Positions 157 through 61,635 of a stretch of 64,000 bases of DNA are shown piece by piece. The stretch is from Candidatus Falkowbacteria bacterium (GTDB lineage: Bacteria > Patescibacteriota > Patescibacteriia > UBA11705). The notes beneath the pieces are model-generated. The model was not told where the DNA came from and searched no databases. It saw only the letters and a list, made by a program, of their open reading frames with translations. How positions within the stretch are numbered: position 1 is the first letter of the stretch; each line of letters opens with the position of its first letter. The DNA lies in NCBI GenBank assembly GCA_003518055.1, contig DOZJ01000002.1, forward strand, positions 299,785 to 363,784, read 5' to 3'. The position numbers and the translations under genes were made by a program.

Positions 157-2313
157 ATGGAGTATAAATATTTGCCCAACACATCAAGGATGATACCGAA
201 GGTCACGACACAGAGAAAAGATGTTATTTCGCATTTTAAACATAGCGATGATGACTATTTATTGTCTAATCAAAAGTCATTTAACAAACCATTGAAAATA
301 AGTAAGGAGATTTTTGAGCTGAATAATAGGATATATTCACGATCAGATTTATCAGAATCGGTTATCAGAGATAAGGGTAATGGAAATGACGAAAAGAAAT
401 ATGTGAAATTGTTCCAAAAAGATTATTACGCAAAGTGTGGTGGTGGACATGATGTATATCAGCAGGCATTATGGAAATGGATCGATTTTTGTAAGGAGTT
501 TTTGTCATGTTATATGAGCTGTGAGTATTTTGATTTTTCTTCTCTCATACAAACAGCTGATTATGACTCAGTTGAGATTTTTTACGCTGATGTTGACAAA
601 GCCTGTTATGTGAAAAAGTTTGTCCAAATTAACGCACAGCAGTTAAACAGGTTGGTGTCTGAAGGGAAGGCGTATTTATTTAAGATATATAATAAAGACT
701 TTTCAGAAAGGAAAATCAAGATTACTGACGGAAAGGATAATCTGGAAACGATCATGTTAAAAAGCCTATTTTCAAAGGATAATATTGAAAGCAAGGTGAT
801 ACAACTTAATGGGGGTGCTGAATTATTTTTCCGTAAAGCCAGTGTTGATCGGGTGAATGATGAAAAAAGAAGTAAGAATATAGATATTGTAACCCATAAA
901 AGATATACGGAGGATAAATATTTCTTTCATTTTCCAATCACGATAAATTTTGGTGAGAAAGTAAGTGGTCAGCAATTTAGGGATAATGTTTTTAAAAAAA
1001 TCAAACAGGATGACCTTAATATCATCGGTATTGATCGTGGCGAAAAGCACCTGCTTTATTATTCGGTTGTGAGTCCACGAGGTGAATTATTAGAGCGAGG
1101 GAGTCTCAATCAGATTGAATCTGGCGGAGAAGTTCAAGAAAAAGAAATTTCCGAACAATTTGATGATCATGGTGCACTTAAAAGTGTTGAGTTGGTCGAA
1201 ACAGGGAATGAAGTTAAATATGTAGATTATCATGTATTGCTCGATTATTATGAGAAGAAACGCAATTTGGCTCGTCGCGATTGGCAGACAATTGGCAAGA
1301 TAAAGGATTTAAAATCCGGCTATTTATCACAAGTAATACATAAAATCTGTCAGTTAATATTGAAGTATGATGCCATTGTTGTCATGGAGGATCTGAATGT
1401 TGAGTTTAAAGCCAAGCGAGCAGCCAAAGTTGAGAAGTCAGTTTATAAAAATTTTGAGTTGGCATTGGCAAGAAAGTTAAATCACCTGATTTTGAAAGAC
1501 AAATCTATCAATGATATCGGAGGAACATTGAAGGCATATCAGCTGACACCTGTAATTCCTGCAAACGATGTTGGTAAATTTGATAAAGCTAGTCAATGGG
1601 GGATTATGTTTTATGTGCGCGCCAACTATACCTCAATCACCGACCCATTGACCGGTTGGCGGCAACATAAATATATTTCAAATTCAGATAACATCGGAAA
1701 AATTCAGGAATTTTTTAATCCGGATTCTGGAGTGCAAATAAACTATGATACTGAGAAACAATGTTATAGATTCAGTTATGGTCAGCAGTTTGATGACAAT
1801 ACAATAAAACAGTGGGATCTGTTCGCTTATGAAGGTTTAGAGCGGTTTTATTGGGATAATAAAAACAGATCAGTGAAGAAGTATAGTTTGTATACAGAAT
1901 TTGAACATATTTTTAGTGATTTGGATAAGTCAAAAAACATTAATCATCAGATTGAAGGTATGACCGGATTTGGGTGGAAAAGTTTAGTGTTTTTCTGGAA
2001 TTTATTGAATCAGATAAGAAATACCGATAGATTAAAGCAGGGGGATGAAAATGATTTTCTACAATCACCTGCTTGGTCGGATCGTCAAGAGTGTTTTTAT
2101 GATAGCCGCAAAGCGTTGGCTGGATTGCCTACAAATGGTGACGCCAATGGAGCTTTTAATATTTCGCGAAAAGGCTTGATTTTATTGGATAGAATAAAGA
2201 GATGCCCGGATCTTTCAAGGTTTGGTAATAATAACAATGGTCGTAATCCTGAAAATGGATATTTTATTTCTGATGTAGAGTGGGATAAATTTGTCCAATC
2301 TGCGAATGAATAA
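157..2313 (+). CDS. cas12a: Type V-A CRISPR effector Cas12a (Cpf1), C-terminal 718 codons (WED/PI/RuvC/Nuc region)
   Basis: The RMIPKV motif matches the Cas12a consensus. The RuvC-I motif IGIDRGEKHLLYYSVV, the block YLFKIYNKDFS...NLETIMLKSLFS...LNGGAELFFRKAS, and a C-terminal DANGAFNISRKG (RuvC-III) are also present. Gene order is cas12a-cas4-cas1-cas2-array. Confidence 0.9.
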   Translation: MEYKYLPNTSRMIPKVTTQRKDVISHFKHSDDDYLLSNQKSFNKPLKISKEIFELNNRIYSRSDLSESVIRDKGNGNDEKKYVKLFQKDYYAKCGGGHDVYQQALWKWIDFCKEFLSCYMSCEYFDFSSLIQTADYDSVEIFYADVDKACYVKKFVQINAQQLNRLVSEGKAYLFKIYNKDFSERKIKITDGKDNLETIMLKSLFSKDNIESKVIQLNGGAELFFRKASVDRVNDEKRSKNIDIVTHKRYTEDKYFFHFPITINFGEKVSGQQFRDNVFKKIKQDDLNIIGIDRGEKHLLYYSVVSPRGELLERGSLNQIESGGEVQEKEISEQFDDHGALKSVELVETGNEVKYVDYHVLLDYYEKKRNLARRDWQTIGKIKDLKSGYLSQVIHKICQLILKYDAIVVMEDLNVEFKAKRAAKVEKSVYKNFELALARKLNHLILKDKSINDIGGTLKAYQLTPVIPANDVGKFDKASQWGIMFYVRANYTSITDPLTGWRQHKYISNSDNIGKIQEFFNPDSGVQINYDTEKQCYRFSYGQQFDDNTIKQWDLFAYEGLERFYWDNKNRSVKKYSLYTEFEHIFSDLDKSKNINHQIEGMTGFGWKSLVFFWNLLNQIRNTDRLKQGDENDFLQSPAWSDRQECFYDSRKALAGLPTNGDANGAFNISRKGLILLDRIKRCPDLSRFGNNNNGRNPENGYFISDVEWDKFVQSANE

Positions 2314-2318
2314 TCGTC

Positions 2319-2876
2319 ATGGAATCCTACATCCCCATCTCAAAAATAAACGATTTTATTTTTTGTCCATATTCGTTAATTTATCACTCGATTTACGAAG
2401 GCTTTACCGAGAAGACATATCATGATGTGCCTCAGACAGCCGGCAAGATCAGCCATGCCAAAATTGATAAAGGCGAATACTCGAGCGCCAAAAAATTCCT
2501 GCAAGGGATTGATGTTTATAGTGAAAAATATGGACTTTGTGGCAAAATTGATATTTTTGATCAGGAAAATGGCATATTGATCGAGCGCAAGAACAAAATT
2601 GAGCGGATATATGATGGATACAAATATCAATTATACGCTCAGTATTTTTCCCTGAACGAAATGGGGTATAACGTGAAAAAGATCGTCTTGCACGCCTTGA
2701 CGACGAATAAACGTTTCAACCTTCCATTGCCCCGAGGCGAAGAATTGAAAAAGTTTGAATCCACCATCGCCGCTATTAATGATTTTAATCCGTTGCGTGA
2801 TAAAGTTGATATTAATCCACAAAAATGCGCTCATTGCATTTATTATGTCCTTTGCGCTTATGCTGTCAGCCAATGA
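2319..2876 (+). CDS. cas4: Cas4 (RecB-like nuclease with a 4-Cys cluster)
   Basis: N-terminal Cys (FIFCPYSL) and C-terminal C-x2-C-x5-C (CAHCIYYVLC); position between cas12a and cas1. Confidence 0.8.
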   Translation: MESYIPISKINDFIFCPYSLIYHSIYEGFTEKTYHDVPQTAGKISHAKIDKGEYSSAKKFLQGIDVYSEKYGLCGKIDIFDQENGILIERKNKIERIYDGYKYQLYAQYFSLNEMGYNVKKIVLHALTTNKRFNLPLPRGEELKKFESTIAAINDFNPLRDKVDINPQKCAHCIYYVLCAYAVSQ

Positions 2877-3798
2877 TTTCGCGGAAAAACAAATATTGAT
2901 TGTGAAGAATTCTCAACAAACCGAATCCAAATTGCGGTTTCAGAATGATAATCTTGTGTTTGCGAACGAAGAAACTGAGAATCGCGTATCCTGTCATAAG
3001 GTCTTAGCGGTATTTGTTGTCGGAGACACATCTATCTCTACGGTCTTGTTGCGTAAGGCCCGCCAGCACGGTATATCTTTTTTCTTGCTCAATCGCAATT
3101 TAGAGTCATACGCGGAAATATTATCGTCAGCCGAAGGCAATTATCTCCTGCGGCAAAAACAATATACGTTTTTGTCTGAATTGTCTGCCGCTAAAAAATT
3201 GGTTGCAAATAAAGCTTTGAATCAGCTTATGCTTTTAAGAGGAGCTGGAAAGATAGCTGATTACGATCTGGGTATCTTCGCCAAAATCGAAAACGCTAAT
3301 ACTGATAAAGAACTTTTAGGGCTTGAGGGGAGCGTGACCAAGAAATTTTTCCAAAGTTATTTCAAGGAGATCGATTGGTATCGCCGTCTGCCGCGAGCCA
3401 AAGTTGATGTTAACAACCTCCTGCTGGATATTGGCTACACAATGATGCTCAACTATATTGATTCACTCTTGCACTTGTTCGGCTTTGATGTTTACAAAGG
3501 GTTTTATCATAAACTATTTTTTAAAAGAAAATCATTATCCTGTGATATCGTGGAACCGTTTCGATGTATTATTGATAAGCAATTATTGAAATCATTTAAT
3601 CTAAAACAAATTGACTTAAAAGATTTTACTCATCGGCAAGGAAAATATGCCGTTTCGTATGATAAATCCACAAAATACATGAGGATTTTCTTTGAAGTCA
3701 TAATGGATCATAAGGATGATATTTACCAGTATATTTATCACTTCTATCGTTATATGAACGGATCTGAGCCTGAATTTCCGGAATTTAAATTGAAATAA
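2845..3798 (+). CDS. cas1: Cas1 integrase (start at ATG 2845 or 2860, overlapping the cas4 stop)
   Basis: A 310-320 aa protein between cas4 and cas2. The ORF track's upstream extension overlaps cas4 in another frame, so the start was trimmed to the first in-frame ATGs near the cas4 stop. Confidence 0.75.
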   Translation: MSFALMLSANDFAEKQILIVKNSQQTESKLRFQNDNLVFANEETENRVSCHKVLAVFVVGDTSISTVLLRKARQHGISFFLLNRNLESYAEILSSAEGNYLLRQKQYTFLSELSAAKKLVANKALNQLMLLRGAGKIADYDLGIFAKIENANTDKELLGLEGSVTKKFFQSYFKEIDWYRRLPRAKVDVNNLLLDIGYTMMLNYIDSLLHLFGFDVYKGFYHKLFFKRKSLSCDIVEPFRCIIDKQLLKSFNLKQIDLKDFTHRQGKYAVSYDKSTKYMRIFFEVIMDHKDDIYQYIYHFYRYMNGSEPEFPEFKLK

Positions 3799-3799
3799 T

Positions 3800-4081
3800 A
3801 TGTTTATAATCAGCTATGATTTCAAAGACGACAAGGTTAGGGCACGTTTTTCCAAATACATCAAAAAGTATGGCCGCAAAATCCAATATTCCGTTTATGA
3901 GATCAAGAATAGTGATCGGGTCTTGAAAAATATCGCCAAAGAGATAGAATTGAAGTACGCAAAGCAATTCACAGGAGCTGACAGCATTCTTATCTTTCCT
4001 GTTTGTGAAACCTGCAAGAAAAAAGTAATGCGGTATGGTTACGCGGCTAACGAGGAAAAAGAGGTTATTGTTTTTGAATAG
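3800..4081 (+). CDS. cas2: Cas2
   Basis: 93 aa with N-terminus MFIISYDFKDDKVRARFSKYIKKYGRKIQYSVYE, typical of Cas2; immediately precedes the array. Confidence 0.85.
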   Translation: MFIISYDFKDDKVRARFSKYIKKYGRKIQYSVYEIKNSDRVLKNIAKEIELKYAKQFTGADSILIFPVCETCKKKVMRYGYAANEEKEVIVFE

Positions 4082-4258
4082 TGTCTTTTGACAATAAAAA
4101 ATACGAAAGAGTATTGAAAGTATAAATTTCTGTATTGATATTTATTAGACAAAAACCCCAGTCCTTATATTTCCAAAAAAGCTAATTTAAGCTAAAAAGT
4201 CGTGTTGGCCTTAGTTGCCTCATTTGCATCTTTTTGGCTTAAATTAGCAAACTGGACT
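4082..4258 (+). promoter_or_regulatory. AT-rich CRISPR leader with a long imperfect inverted repeat (arms about 4176-4199 and 4230-4252)
   Basis: AAAAAGCTAATTTAAGCTAAAAAG ... CTTTTTGGCTTAAATTAGCAAAC immediately upstream of repeat 1. Confidence 0.6.
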
Positions 4259-5470
4259 GTCTAATATCAATATTCAATTTCTACTTTCGTAGATCAACAT
4301 TGTTTTGCGTAAACTGCAACTGTCTAATATCAATATTCAATTTCTACTTTCGTAGATATTTCTCTTCCTGAACCTTGCTCTGTGTCTAATATCAATATTC
4401 AATTTCTACTTTCGTAGATGATTGTTCCACTTCGCCGTCCGGCCAGTCTAATATCAATATTCAATTTCTACTTTCGTAGATATAACTATATAAGTTAAAT
4501 AAATCAGTCTAATATCAATATTCAATTTCTACTTTCGTAGATGCAACGGCGTTCAGACATATATAGAGGTCTAATATCAATATTCAATTTCTACTTTCGT
4601 AGATGCCGACGTAATGGGTGTTAGGTCTATGTCTAATATCAATATTCAATTTCTACTTTCGTAGATGTTGGGTATTCGGATAATACAGCGAGTCTAATAT
4701 CAATATTCAATTTCTACTTTCGTAGATGAAATCCTGAATATGATTCGGCTAAAGTCTAATATCAATATTCAATTTCTACTTTCGTAGATATTCAGCCGTT
4801 GCTTCTCTAACATAGTGTCTAATATCAATATTCAATTTCTACTTTCGTAGATCTTAAGCAGGCTTTTTCAATTGACGCGTCTAATATCAATATTCAATTT
4901 CTACTTTCGTAGATCTCCGGCCCGATAAAATAGCGTCAGGTATAATATCAATATTCAATTTCTACTTTCGTAGATACTTCGTGAAAATCAAATCACCGTG
5001 TGTCTAATATCAATATTCAATTTCTACTTTCGTAGATTCTTGCAAATGCCGAAACGCCAATAATGTCTAATATCAATATTCAATTTCTACTTTCGTAGAT
5101 ATGGGGGAACTTGCGGGCGTGGCTGGTCTAATATCAATATTCAATTTCTACTTTCGTAGATGCTACCAATGGCACAAACCTGTATAGTCTAATATCAATA
5201 TTCAATTTCTACTTTCGTAGATGCAGTCCCAGACCTCCTTTTGATTAAGTCTAATATCAATATTCAATTTCTACTTTCGTAGATCCATCCTCATAACTGG
5301 CGTCATCAGCAGTCTAATATCAATATTCAATTTCTACTTTCGTAGATCAAAATGCCTGTGAATCCACCATAAAGTCTAATATCAATATTCAATTTCTACT
5401 TTCGTAGATATAGAAAACGCCACATCACCTGCGCGTCTAATATCAATATTCAATTTCTACTTTCGTAGAT
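4259..5470 (+). CRISPR. CRISPR array: 20 x 36-bp repeat GTCTAATATCAATATTCAATTTCTACTTTCGTAGAT with 19 spacers of 25-27 nt; repeat 12 (4940-4975) has a C>A variant at its third base
   Basis: Repeat starts counted at 4259, 4322, 4384, 4446, 4507, 4569, 4631, 4692, 4754, 4817, 4879, 4940, 5002, 5065, 5126, 5187, 5249, 5312, 5374 and 5435. The 3' end of the repeat, AATTTCTACTTTCGTAGAT, is the canonical Cas12a crRNA handle (UCUACU-N-GUAGAU stem), oriented for plus-strand transcription. Confidence 0.97.
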
Positions 5471-5535
5471 ATTTCACCTACACTCAAAAATTAACGGCCA
5501 TAAACTCGCCACCGACCACAAAAGGAGTGAACACC

Positions 5536-7103: not shown

Positions 7104-7979
7104 ATGGCTCTTTTGGTAAAAACAAAAAACCAAGATAAACATCATGATCTCGAGGCGTTGAGTGTTCTGGCCAATGAGATTCGCCGCGACATAATCAAAA
7201 TGTTATATGAAGCCGGATCCGGTCATTCCGGTGGGTCTTTGGGTATGACTGATATTTTTACGGCTTTGTATTTCGCCGTTTTGAACCATGATCCCAAAAA
7301 ACCGGCTTGGAGCGGCCGCGATCGGGTTTTTTTGTCAAATGGTCACATCTGCCCGGTCTGGTACGCGACTTTGGCTCACGCCGGCTATTTTCCGTTATCT
7401 GAACTCAAGACTCTGCGTAAACTCGGTTCACGGTTACAAGGTCATCCTCACAATTTGTCCTTGCCCGGAGTGGAGAATACCGGTGGTCCTCTTGGTCAGG
7501 GAATTTCTCAGGCAATCGGCGCCGCCCTTGCCTTGCGTTTGGATCAAAAGAAAAATTATGTTTTCTGTCTCATGAGCGACGGCGAGTTGAACGAAGGCCA
7601 GACATGGGAGGCCTTTATGTTCGCGGCCAAATATAAATTAAACAATCTCACTGCCGTTATTGATCGCAACAATATTCAAATTGACGGCTATACCGAAGAT
7701 ATCATGCCGCTCGAACCATTGGCTGATAAGTTCAAAGCATTCGGCTGGCATGTGCTTGAAATAAACGGTCACAACATGCCTGAAATAATCTCCGCTCTTG
7801 AAACATCAAAAGTTATTTATGAAAAACCCGTGGTGGTTATCGCCCACACGATTCCGGGCAAGGGGGTGAGTTTTATGGAAAATCGGTTTGAGTGGCACGG
7901 AAAACCGCCAGCCAAAAACGAACGCGATCAAGCGTTAAAAGAATTAATGAAAGAACGCAAAGATTATGTTGGTTCGTGA
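7104..7979 (+). CDS. Transketolase, N-terminal (TPP-binding) subunit
   Basis: GSGHSGGSLGMTDIF and HPHNLSLPGVENTGGPLGQG motifs; split-gene arrangement with the next ORF. Confidence 0.9.
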   Translation: MALLVKTKNQDKHHDLEALSVLANEIRRDIIKMLYEAGSGHSGGSLGMTDIFTALYFAVLNHDPKKPAWSGRDRVFLSNGHICPVWYATLAHAGYFPLSELKTLRKLGSRLQGHPHNLSLPGVENTGGPLGQGISQAIGAALALRLDQKKNYVFCLMSDGELNEGQTWEAFMFAAKYKLNNLTAVIDRNNIQIDGYTEDIMPLEPLADKFKAFGWHVLEINGHNMPEIISALETSKVIYEKPVVVIAHTIPGKGVSFMENRFEWHGKPPAKNERDQALKELMKERKDYVGS

Positions 7980-8940
7980 TGTGTACAATGAAAAAACAAT
8001 AGGCCGAGAACCCACACGCAACGGCTATGGGGCGGCTTTGGTTGAACTTGGCCGAAAAAATAAAAATATCGTGGTCTTGACCGGCGACTTGGCCGAATCC
8101 ACGCGCGCTCAGATGTTTCAGGCCAAATACCCAGAGCGGTTTTTTGATGTCGGAGTGGCTGAACAAAATATGATGGGCGTCGCGGCCGGACTCGCGCTCA
8201 CCGGCAAAATTCCTTTTGTCTCAAGTTACGCGGTCTTCAGCCCGGGCCGCAATTGGGATCAGCTCCGAGTAAGCGTTTGTTACAGCCGGGCCAATGTCAA
8301 AATAATCGGCGCACACACCGGTTTGTCGGTCGGGCCGGATGGCGCCACGCACCAAGCGCTTGAAGACATTGCGATCACTCGTTGTCTGCCGAATTTAACC
8401 GTCATCGCGCCCTGTGACGTTCATGAAACCAAAAAAGCCATTTTCGCCGCGGCCAAAATTGCCGGTCCGGTTTATATTCGTCTCGCCCGTGAGGCCACAC
8501 CGGCTTTCACCACTCCCAACACTGATTTTCAGGTTGGTCGGGCGGATATCTTGCGGCGAGGGCATCATGTTTCCATTATTGGCTGTGGGCCGATTTTGTA
8601 CGAAGCCTTGCAGGCTGCCCACAGTTTGAGTCAAGAGGGGATTGAGGCTGAGGTGATCAATTGCCACACCATAAAACCCATCGATCACAAAACTATTATC
8701 GCCTCCGCCAAAAAGACCGAGGCGGTCGTTACGGTCGAAGAGCACCAAATCATCGGCGGTCTCGGCAGCGCCGTAGCCGAAGTTTTATCCGCACATTATC
8801 CGGTTCCGCTCAAGATGATCGGGGTTAGAGACACTTTTGGCGAATCCGGCACCCCGAATGAACTCATGATCAAGTATGGCTTGGATCGGAATCAAATTAT
8901 CGACACGGTTCGTCGTATGATGAAGTCCTTATTGAAATAA
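7966..8940 (+). CDS. Transketolase, C-terminal (pyrimidine-binding) subunit
   Basis: 324 aa; overlaps the N-terminal subunit stop; typical transketolase C-terminal domain sequence. Confidence 0.9.
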   Translation: MLVRDVYNEKTIGREPTRNGYGAALVELGRKNKNIVVLTGDLAESTRAQMFQAKYPERFFDVGVAEQNMMGVAAGLALTGKIPFVSSYAVFSPGRNWDQLRVSVCYSRANVKIIGAHTGLSVGPDGATHQALEDIAITRCLPNLTVIAPCDVHETKKAIFAAAKIAGPVYIRLAREATPAFTTPNTDFQVGRADILRRGHHVSIIGCGPILYEALQAAHSLSQEGIEAEVINCHTIKPIDHKTIIASAKKTEAVVTVEEHQIIGGLGSAVAEVLSAHYPVPLKMIGVRDTFGESGTPNELMIKYGLDRNQIIDTVRRMMKSLLK

Positions 8941-8960: not shown

Positions 8961-9041
8961 GTCTCTGAACCTGCCTGCCGACTTGTATGCCGTATCTTTA
9001 GCGGCGGTATAAGCCTCAGCGTAGGTAGGCTTGTTTCAGGG
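8961..9041 (+). repeat. Diverged copy of the dispersed intergenic structured element (see 16640 and 32194)
   Basis: CCTGCCTGCCGACTTGTATGCCG ... CGTAGGTAGG shares both flanks with the copy at 32210-32270 but has a different central 27 nt. Confidence 0.45.
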
Positions 9042-9096
9042 ACCCAGTCCCAAAGCTCTCAACTTCAATCATTAGTGGTCAAAAAAATATAATCAT

Positions 9097-10092
9097 ATGG
9101 CTGGAAAAAAAGTGTTTGTTACTCGTCAAATTCCGGACGCCGGGCTTAAATTGTTAAAACACGCCGGATACAGCGTTAAAATCAGTCAAACTGGCCGCGC
9201 GATCAAGCACTCTGATTTAATTGGTGAATTAAAAACCGGTTATGATGCCTTGCTTTGTTTATTAACCGATAAAATCGACGGCGCGGTAATGGATGCCGGT
9301 TTGCCTCGGCTCAAAGTGATCGCCAATTACGCGGTCGGATTTGATAATGTCGATCTTAACGCCGCCAAAGACCGCCGACTCATCATCACCAACACTCCGT
9401 CTGATGTCGTCAATGAATCCGTGGCTGAGCATGTCTTGTCTTTGATTTTTTCTCTTGCGCATCGGGTCGTCGAGGCAGACAATTTTACCCGCGCCGGCAA
9501 ATACAAAGGTTGGCAGCCCGATTTATTCATCGGCCAAAATTTGATGGGAAAGACACTCGGCATTATCGGTCTTGGCCGGATCGGCAAAGCCACGGTTAGG
9601 CGCGCCGTCGGGATGGATATGAAAGTGGTTTATCATGATGTCGTCAGAGACAAACAGTTCGAACAACAATATCGAGCCAAGTTTTTGTCTCAACGAGAGC
9701 TTTTGAAAACCGCGGATTTTGTCTCGCTGAATGTGCCGCTTGTGCCGGCAACCCGTCATTTGCTGTCAACCGCCCAATTCAAACTGATGAAAAAAACCGC
9801 CTTTGTCATCAATACTTCGCGCGGACCGGTTGTTGATGAGATGGCTTTGCTCAAAGCGCTAACCAAGCATGAAATCGCCGGCGCCGGTCTTGATGTGTTT
9901 GAGTGTGAACCGTTGATCGATTGTAATCCGCGCGATCATTATGAATTGCGAATGATGAATAATGTGATCATGACGCCGCACACCGCTTCGGCCACGGTTG
10001 AAGCGCGCGCTGATATGGCGGTGGTCGCGGCCAAAAACATTATTGCCGCTTTATCCGGCAAGCGTCCGCCTAATCAGGTGGTATTTAAATAA
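9097..10092 (+). CDS. D-isomer-specific 2-hydroxyacid dehydrogenase (glyoxylate/hydroxypyruvate reductase-like)
   Basis: NAD-binding GIIGLGRIGKA, catalytic-domain layout, 331 aa. Confidence 0.8.
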   Translation: MAGKKVFVTRQIPDAGLKLLKHAGYSVKISQTGRAIKHSDLIGELKTGYDALLCLLTDKIDGAVMDAGLPRLKVIANYAVGFDNVDLNAAKDRRLIITNTPSDVVNESVAEHVLSLIFSLAHRVVEADNFTRAGKYKGWQPDLFIGQNLMGKTLGIIGLGRIGKATVRRAVGMDMKVVYHDVVRDKQFEQQYRAKFLSQRELLKTADFVSLNVPLVPATRHLLSTAQFKLMKKTAFVINTSRGPVVDEMALLKALTKHEIAGAGLDVFECEPLIDCNPRDHYELRMMNNVIMTPHTASATVEARADMAVVAAKNIIAALSGKRPPNQVVFK

Positions 10093-13417: not shown

Positions 13418-13455
13418 CCGAAAGCGCGATTTCGAAATCGCGCTTTCGGTTTTTG
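13418..13455. terminator. Bidirectional palindromic terminator CCGAAAGCGCGATTTCGAAATCGCGCTTTCGG + T5
   Basis: Perfect palindrome between convergent genes; the same stem family recurs at 19899-19927. Confidence 0.65.
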
Positions 13456-15461: not shown

Positions 15462-15505
15462 TAGGGTTTAGCGTGAAGCGTTTAGCGTTTAGTTGAACTA
15501 GACAC
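15462..15505 (+). repeat. Heptamer tandem repeat TTTAGGG/TTTAGCG; inverted copy at 31890-31935
   Basis: atttagggtttagcgtgaagcgtttagcgtttagtt; its reverse complement occurs upstream of another plus-strand gene. Confidence 0.55.
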
Positions 15506-16026: not shown

Positions 16027-16632
16027 CTAATTAACTTCTCGTCTATTGCTCAGCGCGTTTGCCAGCGTCACTTCATCAGCGTATTCGATGTCTGAGCCCA
16101 TGGGCAAACCGCGAGCCAGCCGGGTGATTTTTATTCCCGGTATTGGCTGCAAAAATTTATTGAGATACATGATGGTCGCTTCACCCTGCATATCGGGATT
16201 CAAAGCCAGGATAACTTCAGTCACTTTATTTTTTTTGATCCGGTCAATCAGATTTTGCAGATTTAATTTGTCAGGGGTAATGCCTTCAAGCGGGTTGAGT
16301 ACCCCGCCAAGAATATGATACAAACCGCGGAAAGTATCGGTTTCTTCAATTACATTCAGATCGTGATGTTCTTCTACCAAACATAAAATTGTCTTATCCC
16401 GTTTTGGATCATCGCAGATTGAGCACAGAGTTTGAGCGAAACTGAAATTATGACATTCTTGACACTTGTTTACCGCGCTCAACTGTTCAAAATGACCGGA
16501 GAATTTGTGAATATAGGCGGCATTTTGTTTTAATACAAAAAAAACCAGACGTTCGGCGGTTTTTCGGCCAATGCCGGGCAGAGTATTGAAATCATCAATG
16601 AGATTTTGGATTTGTTCGGGAAACCGGGCCAT
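16027..16632 (-). CDS. recR: Recombination protein RecR
   Basis: C4 zinc finger CQECHNFS...CSIC, Toprim region, 201 aa. Confidence 0.9.
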   Translation of the reverse strand: MARFPEQIQNLIDDFNTLPGIGRKTAERLVFFVLKQNAAYIHKFSGHFEQLSAVNKCQECHNFSFAQTLCSICDDPKRDKTILCLVEEHHDLNVIEETDTFRGLYHILGGVLNPLEGITPDKLNLQNLIDRIKKNKVTEVILALNPDMQGEATIMYLNKFLQPIPGIKITRLARGLPMGSDIEYADEVTLANALSNRREVN

Positions 16633-16639
16633 ATTTATT

Positions 16640-16726
16640 GTGTTATGCTGGGTCTCTCGCTTGCCCGACGACTTGTCTGTCGGAGTTTTAACGAAGGCAG
16701 AAGTTCAAACGAAGTTAGGTCGGCTG
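16640..16726 (+). repeat. Dispersed about 75-nt intergenic structured element, copy A
   Basis: GTGTTATGCTGGGTCTCTCGCTTGCCCGACGACTTGTCTGTCGGAGTTTTAACGAAGGCAGAAGTTCAAACGAAGTTAGGTCGG is about 80% identical to 32195-32280, with compensatory changes in predicted stems. Confidence 0.6.
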
Positions 16727-16775: not shown

Positions 16776-17069
16776 TTACCCCAACCCCGGCAAATTAAAG
16801 TTACCCGATTTCTGCATGGCCATAGCCGCTTCGCGCTGGACTTTTTTCATCGCGCTGTTGGTCGCGTCCTTGATTGCGTCCTGCAGTTTTTCTCGGTCGG
16901 TCATAATTTCAGGGTCAATCTCGATTGAAATCATTTCTTGATTGCCATTGACTTTGACCTTGACCTTGCCCCAGGCGGCGTCGGCATCAGCAATAATTTC
17001 GCTCAGCATACTTTGAAGCTGCTTGGCTTGGTGGCGCAGGTCTTTGATGTTTTTGAGTTTGTTGAACAT
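16776..17069 (-). CDS. ybaB: Nucleoid-associated protein YbaB/EbfC
   Basis: 97 aa, characteristic YbaB sequence, usual recR neighbourhood. Confidence 0.85.
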   Translation of the reverse strand: MFNKLKNIKDLRHQAKQLQSMLSEIIADADAAWGKVKVKVNGNQEMISIEIDPEIMTDREKLQDAIKDATNSAMKKVQREAAMAMQKSGNFNLPGLG

Positions 17070-18555: not shown

Positions 18556-18860
18556 AATAATGTTTTCCTCGTGTCAATTTGAGACTCTCGAAGGACTGAC
18601 TCGGGGATGGGCTCAATAGATCAAGTTAATTTTATCTGATATGACCCCCGGCCGCAAGTTGATAACATGGGGAAAAGCGACGGAAAGAGAATTAAGAGAT
18701 TAGGTTAATTCAGAGATAAAGTTGAATGAGAAAATCAGCCGTCTGTGGGATCTTTATTCTGATTTATTATAAACTAATCCTAATCCCTTAATCTCTTAAT
18801 TCTCTCATTCTCTTTTTACCATATTCTAGCCAAACTTCTGTAGTTATAGTTCCGCCCCTA

Positions 18861-18889
18861 TTGACAAATTATTTAATGTGTGTTATAAT
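18861..18889 (+). promoter_or_regulatory. Consensus promoter TTGACA-N17-TATAAT
   Basis: ttgacaaattatttaatgtgtgttataat immediately upstream of the GC-rich non-coding region. Confidence 0.65.
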
Positions 18890-18895
18890 GGTTAA

Positions 18896-19930
18896 TCGAA
18901 CATTGAAAAACACGACACGGGGCTGCGGCCCCAATCACCGGCGGTCCTGAGGGACGCCCGGTCTACTGGAGGACAACTTGAGAGTTTGTTTTGCTCGTGG
19001 TCCCCCGTAGTTATGTCGCGGCACTGGACGGCCCCACAGACCCTTAATGGGCAGTGCGGCGCGTCCGAACTGCGCTGCTCCGTTTCGGCTTAGGGAGCGT
19101 AAAGCAGCCGACCCACGACAGGCCTACCCGGACGTCTAGCACCACCGGCTCTCCACAGCGAGACGGTGCTAAGACGATCGCGGGTTGAACCCAAACCATA
19201 TAACGTCGAAAGTCGGAGGGCAGAAAGCGCATGAATCGTTCTTGACCCCCCCCACTCTCGGCGGCTGCCGTAAGAGAGGGACACTCGGCCGCGGACGCGA
19301 CTCACATGGAGCGGCGGCCGGCCTCCACAGCAGAGGAAAGGCGCTGTAGAAATGATTCATAGCCGAGCTTCGCCGCGGTAGCGCTCCGTTCACGGACCTA
19401 CCGCATCTGTCGTCAGAGTTCTCACGCGTACAATCCTCGTCGCGGAGCATATAGCCCCAGAGCAGGAACGACGCGATTAATCCCCACTCGTGTGGGGAGA
19501 GTGCGCCTGGACCACTACATCCTGTAAACCGAATTTTAAAAAATTCGGTCAAGGCGGGTGAACGGATCCACGCGCGCAAATATACGGTGGGCCCCACCGT
19601 CCTGACGGACAATGTGGGCCTTGGCTGGACTGGTCACCCTGGTGTTCAGCCAAGTATACAGGGGTTTTCTACCTTAAACGGGAAAGTTGAGGGCAGAAAG
19701 CGCATGACGGTGTAATACAAATGATGACCGAGGCCGGACCACTATGGACGGCTCTCGGAGTCTAACATTCACCTGACAGGAAGTCTTAGACCCGGACGCA
19801 AAGCGTTTCGGGTCTTCGTATTTTAAATAACCCCGAAAGTAAAGTTCGTGAACTTCGGTTTCGGATTCTTCGATCTGTGTTTTTCTGGTTTTTTGAACCG
19901 AAAGCGCGACATCAATGTCGCGCTTTCTAA
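18896..19930 (+). ncRNA. Candidate large structured ncRNA (about 1 kb, GC about 58%, unknown class)
   Basis: No plausible ORF in any frame, and GC far above the local background. Contains many stable hairpins, e.g. ACCGAATTTTAAAAAATTCGGT, GGGTTGAACCC and GCTGC...GCAGC. The 18-mer AGGGCAGAAAGCGCATGA occurs twice (19217 and 19690) within similar GAAAGTYGRAGGG contexts. It ends at the palindromic hairpin 19899-19927. Confidence 0.5.
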
Positions 19931-30480: not shown

Positions 30481-31863
30481 ATGATAATTATGCACTTAAA
30501 TTACAAAAAAGTTTATTTTTCCGGCATCGGCGGTATCGGAGTGTCGGCTTTGGCCAAAATGTTTTATGGCGAAGGGGTCAAGGTTTTGGGGTCAGACTTG
30601 GCGCGCTCGGATATTACCGATGATTTGGAACGCTTGGGGGCCACCATTCACTATAAACAAATCAAAAAAAATATTGATAAGGATATTAATTTATTGATTT
30701 ATTCTCCGGCCGTGCCTGAAACCAATCCTGAGCGTGTCGCCGCGACAGAGCTGGGCATTGAACAAAAAAGCTATCCTGAATTTTTGGGTGAGCTCTCATT
30801 GATGATTGATACTATCGCTGTTTCAGGGACAAATGGTAAATCTACCACCACCGCTATGCTGGCTTCCATTTTGATTGAAGCCAAAGTCGATCCGATGGTA
30901 ATTATCGGTTCAAAGATGGGTAAGATCAAAGGCAATTTTCATGCCGGCAAGGGCAACAAGTTTGTGCTTGAAGCCTGCGAGTATCGCGGTCATATGCTTC
31001 ATCTCAACCCCGGCGCTATTATTTTGACCAATATCGAAGAAGATCACCTTGATTATTTCAAAGATTTGGCGCATATTATTGCGACCTTTCAGCAGTATAT
31101 CAGCCGCCTCAATGGCATCAACCAAATTTTGGTCATTAATAATGATGACTTGAACACCACCCAACTCAATTTGCCGAAATGCCAAATTGTCACCTACGCC
31201 ATCAATGAAACTGCCGATGTGCGCGCTGTCAACATCCAAGTTGAACCCGGCCGTCAAAGATTTTCTCTCGAATATCAAGGTGTGAACTTGGGAAAAATCG
31301 ACCTTCAAGTTCCGGGCAAGTTTAATATTTATAACGCGCTGGCGGCTGTTGCTTATTGTTTGAAAACTGGGATAGAGTTTGAGTGCATCAGGAAAAGTTT
31401 AAAAGCCTATACTGGTTTGTGGCGTCGGTTTGAAAAGATTTACGATGAGGAAGTAACGATTATTTCCGACTACGCTCATCATCCGACCGCGGTCAAAGCG
31501 ACCATTCAGGCGGTCAAGGATTTTTATCCCGGCCGGCGTGTGGTGGCGGTTTTTCAGCCGCATCAGCATGACCGAACCAAAAAACTGTTCAACGATTTTA
31601 TCGCATCGCTGCGTGAGGCCGATCGAGTGATTGTGTCGGAAATTTTCGATGTGGCCGGCCGGGAAGAAGCTTGTCTTTCCGTCAGTTCGGCCGACTTGGT
31701 AAAAAAATTGAATGAAGCCAAAACCGAATCGTCAGTTTACGCCAAGGATTTGGCCGATACTTTGACGCTGGTCAATGAAGCGATTATCGCCGGTGACGTA
31801 GTGTTAGTGATGGGCGCGGGTGATATTTACACGATTAGTAATAAAATTAAGTTGAAACATTGA
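30481..31863 (+). CDS. murC: UDP-N-acetylmuramate--L-alanine ligase
   Basis: GIGGIGVSALA and GTNGKSTTT motifs; 460 aa. Confidence 0.9.
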   Translation: MIIMHLNYKKVYFSGIGGIGVSALAKMFYGEGVKVLGSDLARSDITDDLERLGATIHYKQIKKNIDKDINLLIYSPAVPETNPERVAATELGIEQKSYPEFLGELSLMIDTIAVSGTNGKSTTTAMLASILIEAKVDPMVIIGSKMGKIKGNFHAGKGNKFVLEACEYRGHMLHLNPGAIILTNIEEDHLDYFKDLAHIIATFQQYISRLNGINQILVINNDDLNTTQLNLPKCQIVTYAINETADVRAVNIQVEPGRQRFSLEYQGVNLGKIDLQVPGKFNIYNALAAVAYCLKTGIEFECIRKSLKAYTGLWRRFEKIYDEEVTIISDYAHHPTAVKATIQAVKDFYPGRRVVAVFQPHQHDRTKKLFNDFIASLREADRVIVSEIFDVAGREEACLSVSSADLVKKLNEAKTESSVYAKDLADTLTLVNEAIIAGDVVLVMGAGDIYTISNKIKLKH

Positions 31864-31889: not shown

Positions 31890-31935
31890 GTATAATTGAA
31901 ACTAAACGCTAAACCCTAAACTCTAAACGCTTGAA
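31890..31935 (-). repeat. Heptamer repeat block (reverse complement of 15462-15505)
   Basis: aactaaacgctaaaccctaaactctaaacgc. Confidence 0.5.
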
Positions 31936-32152: not shown

Positions 32153-32193
32153 CTGTTATTAACAGGGGGACGGTAGGGTGACAAATACTCCTC

Positions 32194-32385
32194 GTGTCAT
32201 GCTGAGGCTCTCGCCTGCCCACCGGCTTGTCTGCCGGAGTTTTAACGAAGGCAGAAGTTTTAACGTAGGTGGGAAGCATAGACGCGAGCCTTCAACTCAC
32301 CCTTCGATCCCGCCGCTCGCGAGCAGCGGGATCGAGTGCCCTGCCTACCGCCTGCCGGCAGGCAGGGCAGGCAGGCTCGGGGTAA
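32194..32385 (+). repeat. Dispersed structured element copy B plus an adjacent GC-rich palindromic segment
   Basis: CTCGCCTGCCCACCGGCTTGTCTGCCGGAGTTTTAACGAAGGCAGAAGTTTTAACGTAGGTGGG... is followed by GATCCCGCCGCTCGCGAGCAGCGGGATC and CTGCCGGCAGGCAGG palindromes. ORF 32178..32435 across it is rejected. Confidence 0.6.
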
Positions 32386-32452
32386 CAAATTATTTCACGC
32401 AGTACGTGACTGCGCTCAGAGTGACAAAAATTTAAACATCAATATTTTCAAT

Positions 32453-33403
32453 ATGCTGGATGACTTGAAACAAAAATATAATTTGGAGTTCAAAGCCGAC
32501 GAACCGCTGGCGGCTTATACGACTTTCAAAATCGGCGGCCCGGCCAAATATTTTATCGAGGTCAAGGATAAAGATGAATTAAAACGCGCCTTACTCGCGG
32601 CCAAAGAAAATAGCTTGGCGTATTTTATGCTGGGCGGCGGCAGTAATATTTTAATCTCCGATGACGGGTTTGACGGTCTGGTGATTAGATTGATCAGCGG
32701 CACTTGCCGGTTTGAAACCGACGGCTCAGCCGTTTGTTTTGCCGGCAATAATTGGGCCAAATTCGTCCGTGACGCCATCGGCCAAGGTTTTGGCGGGTTG
32801 GACTTTAGCGGCAATATTCCGGGGACGGTCGGCGGCGCGGTTCGCGGCAATGCCGGCGCCTATGGTCAAGGCGTGGGAGATTTTGTGGCTGAGGTGCTGG
32901 CGGTTGATCTCGCGGCGTCGGATGATTTTGTCCACTTGTCTCACGCGGATTGCCATTTTGATTATCGCGAAAGCGTCTTCAAACGCCAAACCGGGTTGAT
33001 TGTGGCGGAGGTAGCCTTCAAATTAACTCCAAGTGAAAAATCAAAAGAGGAATTGCTTCAGGCCATTGAAGCTGAGGGTCAATCCCGATGCGCCAAACAG
33101 CCGCTCAAGTATCCGAGCGCCGGCTGCTCATTCAAAAACGTTGTTTATACCGATGAATTATCAGCGTATAAAGATTGGGAGACTCACGGCAAAATTCCCG
33201 CGGCCCGATTTATCGAAGCCGCCGGTCTCAAAGGCAAGCAAATCGGCGGGGCCAAAGTGTCTGATGAACACGCTAACTTCATTATCAATGTCGATCATGC
33301 TACCGCTAGCGATGTGATTCAGCTGATCAGCCTCATAAAAATGAAAGTACGCGATCAATATGGCGTCCAGCTCGAAGAAGAAATCCAGTATGTCGGATTT
33401 TAA
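32453..33403 (+). CDS. murB: UDP-N-acetylenolpyruvoylglucosamine reductase
   Basis: FAD-binding YTTFKIGGPA...GGGSNIL; start trimmed to ATG 32453. Confidence 0.85.
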   Translation: MLDDLKQKYNLEFKADEPLAAYTTFKIGGPAKYFIEVKDKDELKRALLAAKENSLAYFMLGGGSNILISDDGFDGLVIRLISGTCRFETDGSAVCFAGNNWAKFVRDAIGQGFGGLDFSGNIPGTVGGAVRGNAGAYGQGVGDFVAEVLAVDLAASDDFVHLSHADCHFDYRESVFKRQTGLIVAEVAFKLTPSEKSKEELLQAIEAEGQSRCAKQPLKYPSAGCSFKNVVYTDELSAYKDWETHGKIPAARFIEAAGLKGKQIGGAKVSDEHANFIINVDHATASDVIQLISLIKMKVRDQYGVQLEEEIQYVGF

Positions 33404-42498: not shown

Positions 42499-44541
42499 AT
42501 GGCAAAGCTGACGGAAAAATTCAAAGTTCGCTTGTGGCTGATTGTAATTCTGGGCGTGGCCGTTTTGGCCGGCGTCTATGATTATCCGCCCATTCTCAAT
42601 CAGGGAATCAACAAGTTTAATCAGGTGTTCAAGACATCAATATCGACTGTAACCAGCCGGCCGTTTATTTTGGGGCTGGATTTACAGGGCGGAACTCATT
42701 TGGTTTACGAAGCTGATACATCGGCCATCGGATCAGGGGAGGAAGGCGCCGCGGTTGACGGTGTCCGCGATGTAATCGAGCGCCGTGTCAATTCTCTCGG
42801 CGTGTCAGAACCCGTGGTTCAAACCAATCAAACCGGCGACAAATGGCGGGTGATTGTTGAGTTGGCCGGGATCCGCGATGTCAATGAAGCCATCAAGGCG
42901 ATCGGTGAGACGCCGCTGCTTGAATTCAAAGAACAAAATGATGCACCGGCTCGTACCCTGACCAAAGAAGAAAAACAAGAGCTTGAAGTCTTCAACAAAA
43001 ACGCCGAAGCCAAAGCCAATATTGTTTTGGACAACGCGCTGGCCGGCGGTGACTTTTCCGCCTTGGCCGCTGCCAACTCAGACGATGTTTTGACCAAAGA
43101 TCAAGGCGGTAATCTTGGTGTTCTGACCGGCGACCAGATTGAATATCAGGCTATATATGAATTAATAACCTCGATGAATCCGACCGAAGCGCAAGTATTG
43201 AATAAACTGGTTGATAATAATGATGGATTTAACATCGTAAAAATAAATGACATCAAAGACGGTGAGCTTCAAGTCAAAGCCAGTCACCTGCTAATTTGTT
43301 TTGACGGTAAAACCGGCTGCAATACCGGCGCGACGCGAGAACAGGCCGAAGGTAAAATCAATGAATTGAAAGCCGGAGCAAACGCTGAAAACTTTGCCGC
43401 TTTGGTTAAATCCAATTCCACCGAACCGGGCGCGAGCGTAAATGCCGGCGATTTGGGTTGGTTTTCCCGCGGCGTGATGGTTCCGGAATTTGACACTGCG
43501 GTTTTTGATATGCCAACCGGCGAAATTTCGAGCGTAATCGAAACCGACTTTGGTTTTCATTTGATTTTCAAAGAAGGGGAGCGCCAAGGCAAAAATTATG
43601 ACGTTTCCCGCATTTTTATTAATACCAAAACCGAAAGAGATATTCTGCCGCCAACCGATCAGTGGAAAAATACCGAGCTGAGCGGCAAACATCTGGAGCG
43701 CGCTTGGGTTGCTTTTGATCCGAGCACCAACGCCCCGCAAGTCAGTCTGCAATTCAACGATGAGGGCGATCAGCTGTTTGCAGATATTACTGGTAGAAAT
43801 GTCGGCAAGCCGGTGGCCATTTTTCTTGACGGCTCAGCGATCAGTATTCCAGTGGTTAATGAAAAAATTACCGGCGGTGAAGCCGTCATATCCGGTTCAT
43901 TTGATTTGGCTGAGGCCCGACTTTTGTCTCAGCGGCTGAACGCCGGCGCCTTGCCCGTGCCGATCGAACTGGTATCTCAGCAAACCGTCGGCGCCACTTT
44001 GGGCCAATCTTCTCTAACCATGAGTCTCAAAGCCGCGTTGATTGGATTTTTATTGGTAGCTCTGTTTATGATTGGGTATTACCGAGTACCCGGTGTTATG
44101 GCGGTGGTTGCCCTGTTATTTTATACGTCTATTCTTCTGTTATTATTTAAATTAATTCCGGTGACATTGACTTTGTCGGGTATTGCCGGGTTTATCTTAT
44201 CAGTCGGTATGGCTGTGGACGCGAATGTTCTTATCTTTGAGCGATTCAAGGAAGAGTTAAAAAGTGGCAAACCGTATGGATCCTCTCTTGAGGAAGGGGC
44301 TAAGCGAGCTTGGCCTTCGATCCGTGATGGCAACGCGACCACGTTGATTACTTGTTTCATCTTGGCTTGGTTTGGTACTAGCAGTATTCAAGGTTTTGCC
44401 ATTACTCTTGGAGTTGGTGTGATGATCAGTATGTTTTCCGCTATCGTGGTTACTCGATCGTTACTCAAAATATTCATCGGAATAAAAGAGAACAATAATA
44501 ATTTATTCTGGTTCGGAGTAAGACGAAATATCGAGAAATAA
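42499..44541 (+). CDS. secD: Protein-export membrane protein SecD with a parvulin-type PPIase domain embedded in the periplasmic P1 head
   Basis: SecD TM1, P1 domain and C-terminal 5-TM core are present. Residues about 250-365 (...ASHLLICFD...GDLGWFSRGVMVPEFDTAVFDM...GFHLIFKEGE) match the PpiC/parvulin fold. Confidence 0.8.
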   Translation: MAKLTEKFKVRLWLIVILGVAVLAGVYDYPPILNQGINKFNQVFKTSISTVTSRPFILGLDLQGGTHLVYEADTSAIGSGEEGAAVDGVRDVIERRVNSLGVSEPVVQTNQTGDKWRVIVELAGIRDVNEAIKAIGETPLLEFKEQNDAPARTLTKEEKQELEVFNKNAEAKANIVLDNALAGGDFSALAAANSDDVLTKDQGGNLGVLTGDQIEYQAIYELITSMNPTEAQVLNKLVDNNDGFNIVKINDIKDGELQVKASHLLICFDGKTGCNTGATREQAEGKINELKAGANAENFAALVKSNSTEPGASVNAGDLGWFSRGVMVPEFDTAVFDMPTGEISSVIETDFGFHLIFKEGERQGKNYDVSRIFINTKTERDILPPTDQWKNTELSGKHLERAWVAFDPSTNAPQVSLQFNDEGDQLFADITGRNVGKPVAIFLDGSAISIPVVNEKITGGEAVISGSFDLAEARLLSQRLNAGALPVPIELVSQQTVGATLGQSSLTMSLKAALIGFLLVALFMIGYYRVPGVMAVVALLFYTSILLLLFKLIPVTLTLSGIAGFILSVGMAVDANVLIFERFKEELKSGKPYGSSLEEGAKRAWPSIRDGNATTLITCFILAWFGTSSIQGFAITLGVGVMISMFSAIVVTRSLLKIFIGIKENNNNLFWFGVRRNIEK

Positions 44542-45562: not shown

Positions 45563-45652
45563 GTTTATCTCTTTGACTAGAGTTACGGGGGATCTTCCTG
45601 CCAACAGCCGTGCTGTTGGCAGGATGGAGGCGGGAGGAGGATAACCGCAATC

Positions 45653-46632: not shown

Positions 46633-46674
46633 TTAGAGTATCTCCTGTCTGGTTGTCGAAGATCTTAATCAACC

Positions 46675-46703
46675 ATTATATCACATTTTTCATAAAAAGT
46701 CAA
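46675..46703 (-). promoter_or_regulatory. Module-1 promoter, perfect TTGACT-N17-TATAAT (minus strand)
   Basis: The reverse complement reads TTGACTTTTTATGAAAAATGTGATATAAT. Confidence 0.7.
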
Positions 46704-46735
46704 TAGTAAGTGGTTTTTTTACTCTTATTTATAAC

Positions 46736-47948: not shown

Positions 47949-48026
47949 TGACTTTCTCCCATGCGCTATTCTCGCGTCATGTTGCTATGTTTCCGTGGTG
48001 AACGTTGTTAAAGATCTTAATCGACA

Positions 48027-48055
48027 ATTATATCATATTTTAATAAAAAAGTCAA
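48027..48055 (-). promoter_or_regulatory. Module-2 promoter, perfect TTGACT-N17-TATAAT (minus strand)
   Basis: The reverse complement reads TTGACTTTTTTATTAAAATATGATATAAT; the surrounding 50 bp are about 85% identical to the module-1 promoter region. Confidence 0.7.
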
Positions 48056-61077: not shown

Positions 61078-61160
61078 TCAGTGATTAGCGATTAGCAATT
61101 AGCGATTAGTAACTAGCGATTAGTAATTAGTAACTAGCAAATAGCGATTAGCACTATTAC
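61078..61160 (+). repeat. Array of about 11 heptamers (GATTAGC/AATTAGC/AACTAGC...), left arm of an inverted-repeat pair
   Basis: gtgattagcgattagcaattagcgattagtaactagcgattagtaattagtaactagcaaatagcgattagcac. Confidence 0.8.
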
Positions 61161-61542: not shown

Positions 61543-61555
61543 TAAATCGTTCTTA

Positions 61556-61625
61556 TCCCTAATCGCTAGCCGCTAGTTGCTAATTCCCCGGATTTTCCCG
61601 AATTGCTAATTACTATTTGCTAGTT
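61556..61625 (-). repeat. Heptamer array in inverted orientation (GCTAATC/GCTAGTT...), right arm; last about 27 nt are the reverse complement of 61130-61160
   Basis: ctaatcgctagccgctagttgctaatt...gctaattactatttgctagttgct. Confidence 0.75.
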
Positions 61626-61635
61626 GCTAAAATAT

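Follow-up and report, generated by a model that had tools for sequence, protein, structure and literature searches.

A probable REP/MITE-like DNA repeat built of nested palindromes in the genome of a Candidatus Falkowbacteria bacterium

Several similar intergenic stretches in the genome of a groundwater Candidatus Falkowbacteria raise the question of whether they are copies of a spreading DNA repeat, members of a structured RNA family, or something else. The original prediction described an element of about 75 nt with compensatory base changes and left the choice between a REP/MITE-like element and a small structured RNA family. We analysed a 64,000-nt stretch of the genome (the window; positions below are counted from its first letter) together with flanks added from public contigs, L059 and L065 upstream and L062 downstream, giving 87.5 kb of genome read in total. 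CPR/Patescibacteria genomes are small and usually regarded as repeat-poor, and the literature searched contained no description of a dispersed palindromic repeat family in this group. As set out below, the element is probably a dispersed, non-coding and self-nesting palindromic DNA repeat of the REP/MITE kind.

Copies of the element and their genomic setting

The three similar stretches in the window, A, B and C, proved to be true copies: the pattern TGCCNNNCGRCTTGTNTGYCG-N27-CGWAGKTNGG matches all of them and was expected 0.00 times in shuffled sequence (Table 1). The predicted likeness of about 80% between A and B agrees with the 81% identity measured over 89 nt (the whole of A against B 32185-32273), and the 24-mer GGAGTTTTAACGAAGGCAGAAGTT was found in these two copies only. 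A covariance model (CM) built from A-C alone matched A, B, C and, weakly, a site at 32340-32383 on the minus strand (17.5 bits, E = 0.019), which corresponds to a nested mini form. The same model detected a fourth, independent copy, D, 1.4 kb past the window end and adjoining a tRNA-Ser gene. A short form, D', and two 20-nt minimal forms lie in the same 2 kb as D. This amounts to about eight loci in the 87.5 kb, none of them within the 16 kb upstream of the window, and no copy falls outside intergenic or tRNA-derived non-coding sequence.

Table 1. Coordinates of the repeat copies and associated features. Positions are in window numbering unless a contig is named.
Feature	Position	Strand	Description
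Copy C	8961-9043	+	Complete long form; pattern match at 8972-9029; CM 83.3 bits; outer flank stem GTCTCTGAA/TTTCAGGGAC; outer unit arms CCTGCCTGCC ... GTAGGTAGG; inner unit CTTGTATGCCG ... GCGGCGGTATAAG
Copy A	16631-16719	+	3'-truncated long form; CM 90.2 bits
Copy B	32185-32288	+	Most complete long form; CM 94.6 bits
Copy B, outer flank stem	32191-32203 with 32275-32288		
Copy B, outer unit stem	32218-32223 with 32268-32273		CCCACC with GGTGGG
Copy B, inner unit stem	32230-32235 with 32250-32255		TCTGCC with GGCAGA
GC-rich near-perfect palindrome	32304-32335		TCGATCCCGC(C)GCTCGCGAGC(A)GCGGGATCGA; between B and the nested mini form
Nested mini form	32340-32375	-	CCTGCCTGCC [CTGCCTGCCGGCAGGC] GGTAGGCAGG; listed in the loci search as L137 3360-3395
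Possible distant relative	45596-45624		Perfect 13-bp hairpin TCCTGCCAACAGC-CGT-GCTGTTGGCAGGA; base CCTGCC/GGCAGG
tRNA-Ser(GGA) 5' fragment	65216-65311 (L062 14040-14135)		
20-nt minimal form	L062 14083-14102		CCTGCCTGCCGGYAGGCAGG
tRNA-Ser(GGA), intact gene	L062 14182-14271		
Copy D	65445-65523 (L062 14269-14347)	-	CM 42.3 bits, E = 4.9e-9
tRNA-Ser(CGA), intact gene	L062 15350-15439		
Spacer and duplicated tRNA-Ser(CGA) 3' end	66616-66788 (L062 15440-15612)		
20-nt minimal form	L062 15582-15601		CCTGCCTGCCGGYAGGCAGG
Short form D'	L062 15609-15650	-	GGCTTGCCAGCC, 14 nt, CGTAGGCTGG

Copy C is found between the C-terminal half of a transketolase (7966-8940, +) and a 2-hydroxyacid dehydrogenase (9097-10092, +), and B between murC (30481-31863, +) and murB (~32453-33403, +). 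Copy A lies between recR (16027-16632, -), whose start codon it abuts, and ybaB (16776-17069, -); because both genes are on the minus strand, it is antisense to the ybaB/recR operon. A possesses the 5' outer flank of B and both units, and the 3' outer strand present in B is absent, which marks A as a truncated copy. Relative to local genes, B and C are in sense and A, D, D' and the nested mini form are antisense. GC skew is positive over the whole window and copies occur on both strands, so no orientation rule with respect to replication emerges.

Copy B is part of a cluster of three hairpins. The near-perfect palindrome next to it, of which no second copy was seen, is followed by the nested mini form, in which the 20-nt palindrome carries a second, slightly trimmed copy of itself at its centre. 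The segment 32296-32392 folds with z = -4.21 on the plus and -6.44 on the minus strand. A further hairpin, directly after a canonical terminator downstream of secF, gave a weak CM match (12.7 bits, E = 0.35) and is a possible distant relative of the family.

The open reading frame at 32178-32435 is spurious, as had been anticipated: a search of 5.8 billion proteins returned no homologue, and the interval from murC to murB is free of genes in public gene calls. The hairpins thus create spurious ORFs, and they also break assemblies, one public contig (L138) ending a short way upstream of copy B. A family of small proteins encoded in frame 1 of the plus strand can hardly be entertained. Although that frame runs open through the conserved part in all of A, B and C and some B/C differences would be synonymous (CGG/CGT, GGC/GGT, AGT/AGC), an antisense frame is just as open, the majority of A/B changes are non-synonymous and a 10-nt insertion in D shifts the shared frame. 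In addition, no ribosome-binding site was seen before the ORFs (by eye), and public pipelines do not call them.

The family was not detected at the corresponding loci of relatives. The nearest RecR is 65% identical, and the recR loci of relatives (RecR identity 59-65%) gave no CM match; the ybaB-recR spacers of the nearest relatives carry unrelated sequence. One such spacer (L056 9918-10000; RecR identity 59%) contains a different GC-rich hairpin, GGATCCCCGCTTTCGCGGGGATGA inside GCCGCTG...CAGCGGGGC, which suggests that hairpins of unrelated kinds land repeatedly in the ybaB-recR spacer. Public contigs of the organism itself were 100% identical to the window over the 6-27 kb compared, with the exception of L041 (5 mismatches in 6.4 kb), so insertion polymorphism was not observed. 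Pattern scans of GTDB genomes and JGI metagenome contigs returned chance matches in high-GC coding DNA only, a weak negative since the patterns were too strict: they would miss D, and the source contig was not returned either.

Several other features of the region were recorded. A type V-A CRISPR-Cas locus (157-5488 and L059 5664-9995) comprises cas12a, cas4, cas1 and cas2 and an array at 4259-5488 with 20 repeats of 36 nt ending in AATTTCTACTTTCGTAGAT. Public calls show cas12a as two neighbouring ORFs separated by 3 nt, one of 723 aa with REC1 and one of 718 aa with PI and RuvC, which could represent an interrupted or recoded gene. In a Logan assembly (L064) the array is apparently much shorter, judged by gene spacing after cas2. 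A SecD homologue (42499-44541, +) has PpiC-type peptidyl-prolyl isomerase domains between its N-terminal and P1-head domains, an arrangement that looks like an unusual fusion.

The gap between dnaB and folD (18860-19930, +) is free of genes and is a candidate large structured non-coding RNA. A strong sigma-70-like promoter with an extended -10 (TTGACA-17-TATAAT, TG before) lies at 18862-18890 and is followed by about 1 kb of non-coding sequence with ~55% GC (fold z = -5.15 over 984 nt), in which GAGGGCAGAAAGCGCATGA occurs twice, near 19216 and near 19690, and which closes with a hairpin (19898-19927). The gap has no Rfam match even at E up to 1. The folD-dnaB gap of relatives is also gene-free, and blastn similarity to it consists of the promoter region and one weak 43-nt match. 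Near-identical promoter-like blocks, TTGAC...TGTGnTATAATGGTT, occur before different transcription units at 18858-18896, 46652-46706 (-) and 48004-48055 (-), the latter two sharing 83% identity over 52 nt. The terminal hairpin of the gap, just after folD, has the stem GAAAGCGCGA/TCGCGCTTTC in common with another perfect, terminator-like hairpin (13418-13449) between a convergent clpB-like gene and a 190-aa ORF; the two may form a second small family of shared hairpins.

Unit architecture, compensatory changes and folding

The repeat is built from a hairpin unit consisting of CYTG, a 6-bp GC-rich stem, a loop, (A/G)CG(T/A)A and the return stem, with the consensus 5' CYTG-YC-NN-CC-G-R and 3' A-R-C-G-W-A-GG-N'N'-G-R. 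The minimal form is the 20-nt palindrome, and the long form (A-D) consists of two units joined by a 4-bp connector, often within a further, copy-specific outer stem. The 20-nt form, a 34-nt form and the units of the long form are all imperfect palindromes. In a hand-made alignment, comparison of inner with outer arms within each long copy gave 8-10 identical positions of 12 per side. The inner and outer halves are homologous, and the long element therefore corresponds to one hairpin unit within the loop of another. The outer arms of C are the arms of the 20-mer around a 41-nt insert, and within the 79 kb examined CCTGCCTGCC is confined to these elements. Across 12 units, the 6-bp stem is 98.6% paired and five of its six pairs have changed on both sides, which none of 500 shuffles reached, a statistic inflated by the fact that the units were hand-picked, hand-aligned and related by descent.

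Compensatory changes were evaluated on the consensus structure of the long form. RNAalifold applied to A-C yielded one nested hairpin with an outer 6-bp stem, a 4-bp connector, an inner 6-bp stem and a small apical stem. Besides the stems of B (Table 1), the outer stem reads CCTGCC/GGTAGG in C and CCCGAC/GTTAGG in A, with one C.A mismatch, and the inner stem of C reads TATGCC/GGTATA. For the three copies, 94.4% of cells were paired and two-sided changes had occurred in four pairs, where slid controls gave 0-1. Pairing was kept when D was aligned, and D adds new compensatory pairs in the outer (CCAGCC/GGCTGG) and inner stem (TCCGCC/GGCGGA). With four copies, 94.4% of cells were again paired, with five pairs changed on both sides and 12 extra pair types; this was reached by 1-5 of 500 shuffles, a value that leans toward the proposed structure because the alignment had been fitted to the model. 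Slid controls gave 0-2 two-sided changes overall.

The predicted covariation is thus real in the sense that four to five pairs of a consensus hairpin have changed on both sides, but the pairing scheme differs from the one first proposed. The local stem CCGGC-TTGTCT-GCCGG, which had been put forward for B, is broken in C and D, and its 75% pairing was equalled by 415 of 500 shuffles. The stem CCGAC...GTCGG suggested for A needs its partner shifted by 4 nt, whereas the in-register stem of A is the mismatched one given above. The centre of C had been described as completely different and likened to a swappable cassette; in register, 15 of its 27 bases equal those of B, and the same pairs are formed through changes of the G-C to A-U type. 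Copy C is a diverged homologue, not a swapped cassette. A genuine module difference exists between D and the short form D', beyond the window. Selection for, or maintenance of, a hairpin is accordingly supported by the compensatory changes, on another pairing scheme than the predicted one. Stem complementarity could also persist through hairpin-templated repair instead of selection.

As RNA, copy B folds with -45.1 kcal/mol (z = -3.45 on the plus and -1.92 on the minus strand) and C with -40.3 kcal/mol (z = -4.10 and -1.40); the corresponding DNA folds have z values of -2.92 and -1.01 for B and -2.12 and -1.34 for C. Neither strand of copy A folds stably (z = +1.36 and +0.17). For B, C and D, the better fold is that of the element strand, whether computed for RNA or for DNA, and over the four copies G.U pairs exceed A.C mismatches on this strand by 8 to 3. 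The better fold of one strand and the G.U excess leave room for a role at the RNA level.

One explanation along these lines would be a cis-acting RNA hairpin in mRNA or tRNA 3' regions: co-transcribed with the upstream gene, the long hairpin would terminate transcription without a U-tract, block 3' exonucleases or be a site of RNase processing, with the RNA fold under selection and dispersal secondary. The strand preference, the G.U excess and the stable RNA folds of B and C, both of which lie in sense just downstream of murC and of the transketolase gene, are consistent with such a hairpin, as is the position of some instances in phage contigs (see below), 13-28 nt past the end of an ORF or between convergent ORFs. 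However, A, D, D' and the nested mini form are antisense to local transcription, and none of the copies is followed by a U-tract, in a region that does contain canonical A-tract/stem/T-tract terminators. T-variant palindromes in phage contigs are in mixed orientation to the flanking ORFs, the 20-mer is conserved as a sequence beyond its structure, and a cis-acting RNA would leave the insertions in tRNA-derived sequence unaccounted for. We consider it rather unlikely as the main explanation.

A gene family for trans-acting small RNAs, in which every copy is transcribed separately, is much less probable still. Such a family would be expected to keep its structure by compensatory changes, and loop sequences are indeed conserved among A, B and D; yet the homology of inner and outer units accounts for these loops, and A is truncated and unfolded. 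No promoter-like or terminator-like signal above chance was found at A, B or C. Rfam gave no match in the whole window at gathering thresholds and only chance-level ones around B with E up to 10, and nothing similar occurs at the loci of relatives. Of the two kinds of element proposed at the outset, the small RNA family is therefore disfavoured, and the REP/MITE-like repeat fits the evidence.

Insertions in tRNA-derived sequence and the 20-mer in phage contigs

No tRNA was found anywhere in the window (ARAGORN), and the evidence for insertion comes from the tRNA-Ser genes beyond its end and from the mini form nested within another at 32340-32375. A 5' fragment of tRNA-Ser(GGA), directly upstream of the intact gene, shares 52 of 54 positions with it once the 20-nt palindrome inserted precisely in its D-loop is set aside. 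No target duplication surrounds this insertion. Downstream of tRNA-Ser(CGA), a duplicated 3' end of the gene reads AAATCCCACC[20-mer]CTCTCCGCCA, the palindrome sitting between CCCACC and CTCTCCGCCA. Copy D adjoins the CCA end of tRNA-Ser(GGA) and D' that of the duplicated tRNA-Ser(CGA) 3' end, both in antisense. The duplicate lies ~120 nt downstream of the intact gene, across a GC-rich spacer with internally complementary segments (by eye). The decayed and duplicated tRNA-Ser pieces may be the scar of an element that integrated at a tRNA 3' end.

By extension, all copies might be relics of the attachment sites or ends of an integrative element that targeted tRNA-Ser 3' ends and carried the hairpins along. 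The positions of D and D' and the nearby duplicated 5' fragment of tRNA-Ser(GGA) would suit this account, which is nevertheless improbable: A, B and C have no significant similarity to either tRNA-Ser, on which ground a tRNA origin was rejected for them, no integrase was found in the region, and the occurrence of the 20-mer in unrelated phage contexts would be left unexplained.

The 20-nt palindrome extends far beyond this genome. It occurs exactly in 47 IMG/VR loci with 33-70% GC, where a rough estimate gives a chance expectation of <1 match, and several contigs have 2-6 copies. In 34 further IMG/VR loci its 10-nt arms are separated by a central insert of 1-31 nt, in some cases itself palindromic; these variable inserts mirror C, D' and the nested mini form. 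In all, ~80 phage-like contigs (L066-L112, L139-L172) carry the 20-mer or its arms. The long form had no match in IMG/VR. When two variable positions per arm were freed, TG/CA (42 instances) and TG/TA (14) dominated and every other combination occurred at most three times, showing that the sequence itself is conserved, beyond the fold. The distribution, as known for IMG/VR, GenBank phages and PLSDB, is odd because the exact 20-mer is absent from GenBank phages (2.3 Gb) and from PLSDB plasmids (7.3 Gb). A literature search found the sequence string in no paper.

In phage contigs, too, the palindrome enters tRNA sequence. It lies within the variable loop of a predicted tRNA-Met (L096) and within a tRNA-like D-loop (L107), and a third copy is also inside a tRNA gene (L068). 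Because the element is built from a palindrome that is identical in dozens of unrelated phage contigs and sits inside tRNA genes, it is most likely a tiny spreading repeat, not an RNA gene. An assembly or adaptor artefact is unlikely, as the flanks are continuous (intact tRNA halves), there are variant as well as nested forms, and the assemblies from MEGAHIT, SPAdes and Logan were concordant wherever compared.

The 20-mer is found within tandem arrays of heptamers in several phage contigs (L067/L105, L095, L093 and L129/L131; by eye). Heptamer arrays like those flanking it also occur in the window. Repeats of (CTAAACN)n are present at 15463-15494, after a glycosyltransferase family 4 gene (PF00953), and at 31900-31931, after murC. 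Arrays of the TTAGTAA/CTAGCGA type at 61097-61153 and 61552-61630, inverted relative to each other, flank a 121-aa gene (61177-61542) of the 23S_rRNA_IVP / bAvd-like four-helix-bundle type.

How the palindrome might move was approached through its neighbours and flanks. Among the scanned or pre-annotated ORFs of the 87.5 kb, Pfam searches revealed no transposase, RAYT-like (PF01797) gene or integrase. Beside the phage 20-mers there is no match to RAYT (PF01797) and no shared protein family, the neighbours being ordinary phage structural ORFs. With neither a transposase in the 87.5 kb nor a common protein family beside the phage copies, no mobilising mechanism is supported. Targeting of hairpin apices was rejected as a general rule, since flank complementarity was 3.13 pairs per 12 positions for 53 phage instances versus 3.19 in controls. 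Inspected by eye, the 5' flanks of the 20-mer show no consensus tetranucleotide of the kind that IS200/IS605-like elements target. The flanks form direct repeats in 11 of 53 instances versus 10% in controls, only a mild enrichment, and several of these repeats lie in heptamer arrays (by eye). Template and variable repeats of a diversity-generating retroelement were also dismissed, the A/B differences not being adenine-specific (by eye).

Interpretation and comparison with known systems

Taken together, a dispersed, self-nesting repeat of the REP/MITE kind fits best with moderate confidence, because copies are intergenic and dispersed on both strands, occur in simple, nested and truncated forms, are inserted precisely in tRNA-derived sequence, have no promoter or terminator of their own and were found in none of the nearest relatives. 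Copies would arise by copy-and-insert, without target duplication, and could land within other copies as well as within tRNA-derived sequence. An enzyme encoded elsewhere would presumably act in trans to move the element. A folded single strand, either DNA during mobilisation or co-transcribed RNA, may be what is recognised or selected, and this would explain the kept complementarity. Sense copies after genes, such as B and C, may double as RNA 3' hairpins.

More tentatively, CCTGCCTGCCGGYAGGCAGG may itself be a mobile element of an undescribed kind, ultra-small and specific in sequence, or else a site that some enzyme targets or leaves behind as its footprint. It would then cross phages and bacteria of very different GC content, including CPR, without target duplication, enter tRNA loops and take insertions at its own centre, and the 75-nt element would be its two-tier derivative. 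If truly mobile, the 20-mer would be among the smallest transposable units and would point to an enzyme recognising a specific hairpin with a 10-bp stem. The family is unusual for its modular nesting units, for the direct evidence of insertion in tRNA-derived sequence and for a core that is a 20-mer of phage contigs absent from cultured phages and plasmids.

Intrinsic terminators resemble the element in being GC-rich hairpins just downstream of genes, as are B, C and some phage instances. They differ from it in that no copy has a U-tract and half of the copies, A, D and D' among them, are antisense.

Integron attC sites also have a conserved hairpin base and a top of very variable length, and are recognised as a folded single strand with strand preference. 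Their core motifs are GTTRRRY and its inverse, and they belong to a cassette array with the tyrosine integrase IntI. The present copies, by contrast, are accompanied by no integrase, cassette array or attC core motifs, and they lie between housekeeping genes (murC/murB, tkt, ybaB/recR).

Rickettsia palindromic elements, ~100-150 nt long and known from one genus, are likewise palindromic repeats that functional genes, among them RNA genes, can accommodate. The form found inserted here has a length of 20 nt and occurs across very different genomes.

ERIC/IRU, BOX and Correia/NEMIS elements are intergenic imperfect palindromes (~70-130 nt) that are co-transcribed with their neighbours and occur as size variants through internal insertions or modules. 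MITEs are defined by terminal inverted repeats and a target-site duplication and are derived from an IS. The element shares no sequence similarity with ERIC, BOX or Correia repeats and has neither terminal inverted repeats with a target duplication nor a parent IS; the 20-nt insertion in the tRNA-Ser(GGA) fragment lacks a duplication, and no IS was found.

REPs are extragenic imperfect palindromes of ~20-40 nt, present in tens to hundreds of copies per genome. A tetranucleotide of the GTAG/GTGG type lies 5' of the hairpin, and the cognate RAYT, an IS200/IS605-like Y1 transposase (PF01797), is typically flanked by REPs. REP families are normally lineage-specific, and their clusters are known as BIMEs. 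The element differs from REPs in its head, CYTG at the 5' foot, with GTAG (CGTAGG) kept but placed inside the loop, 5' of the return arm. Its units nest, no RAYT was found in the 87.5 kb, and the same 20-mer recurs in unrelated phage contigs of 33-70% GC. It resembles REPs and REPINs in consisting of short, GC-rich, imperfect palindromes that are extragenic, occupy both strands, leave no target duplication and may double as RNA 3' hairpins. Like BIMEs, it forms a cluster of alternating orientation, made up of B, the adjacent palindrome and the nested mini form, and it keeps a conserved tetranucleotide beside the stem.
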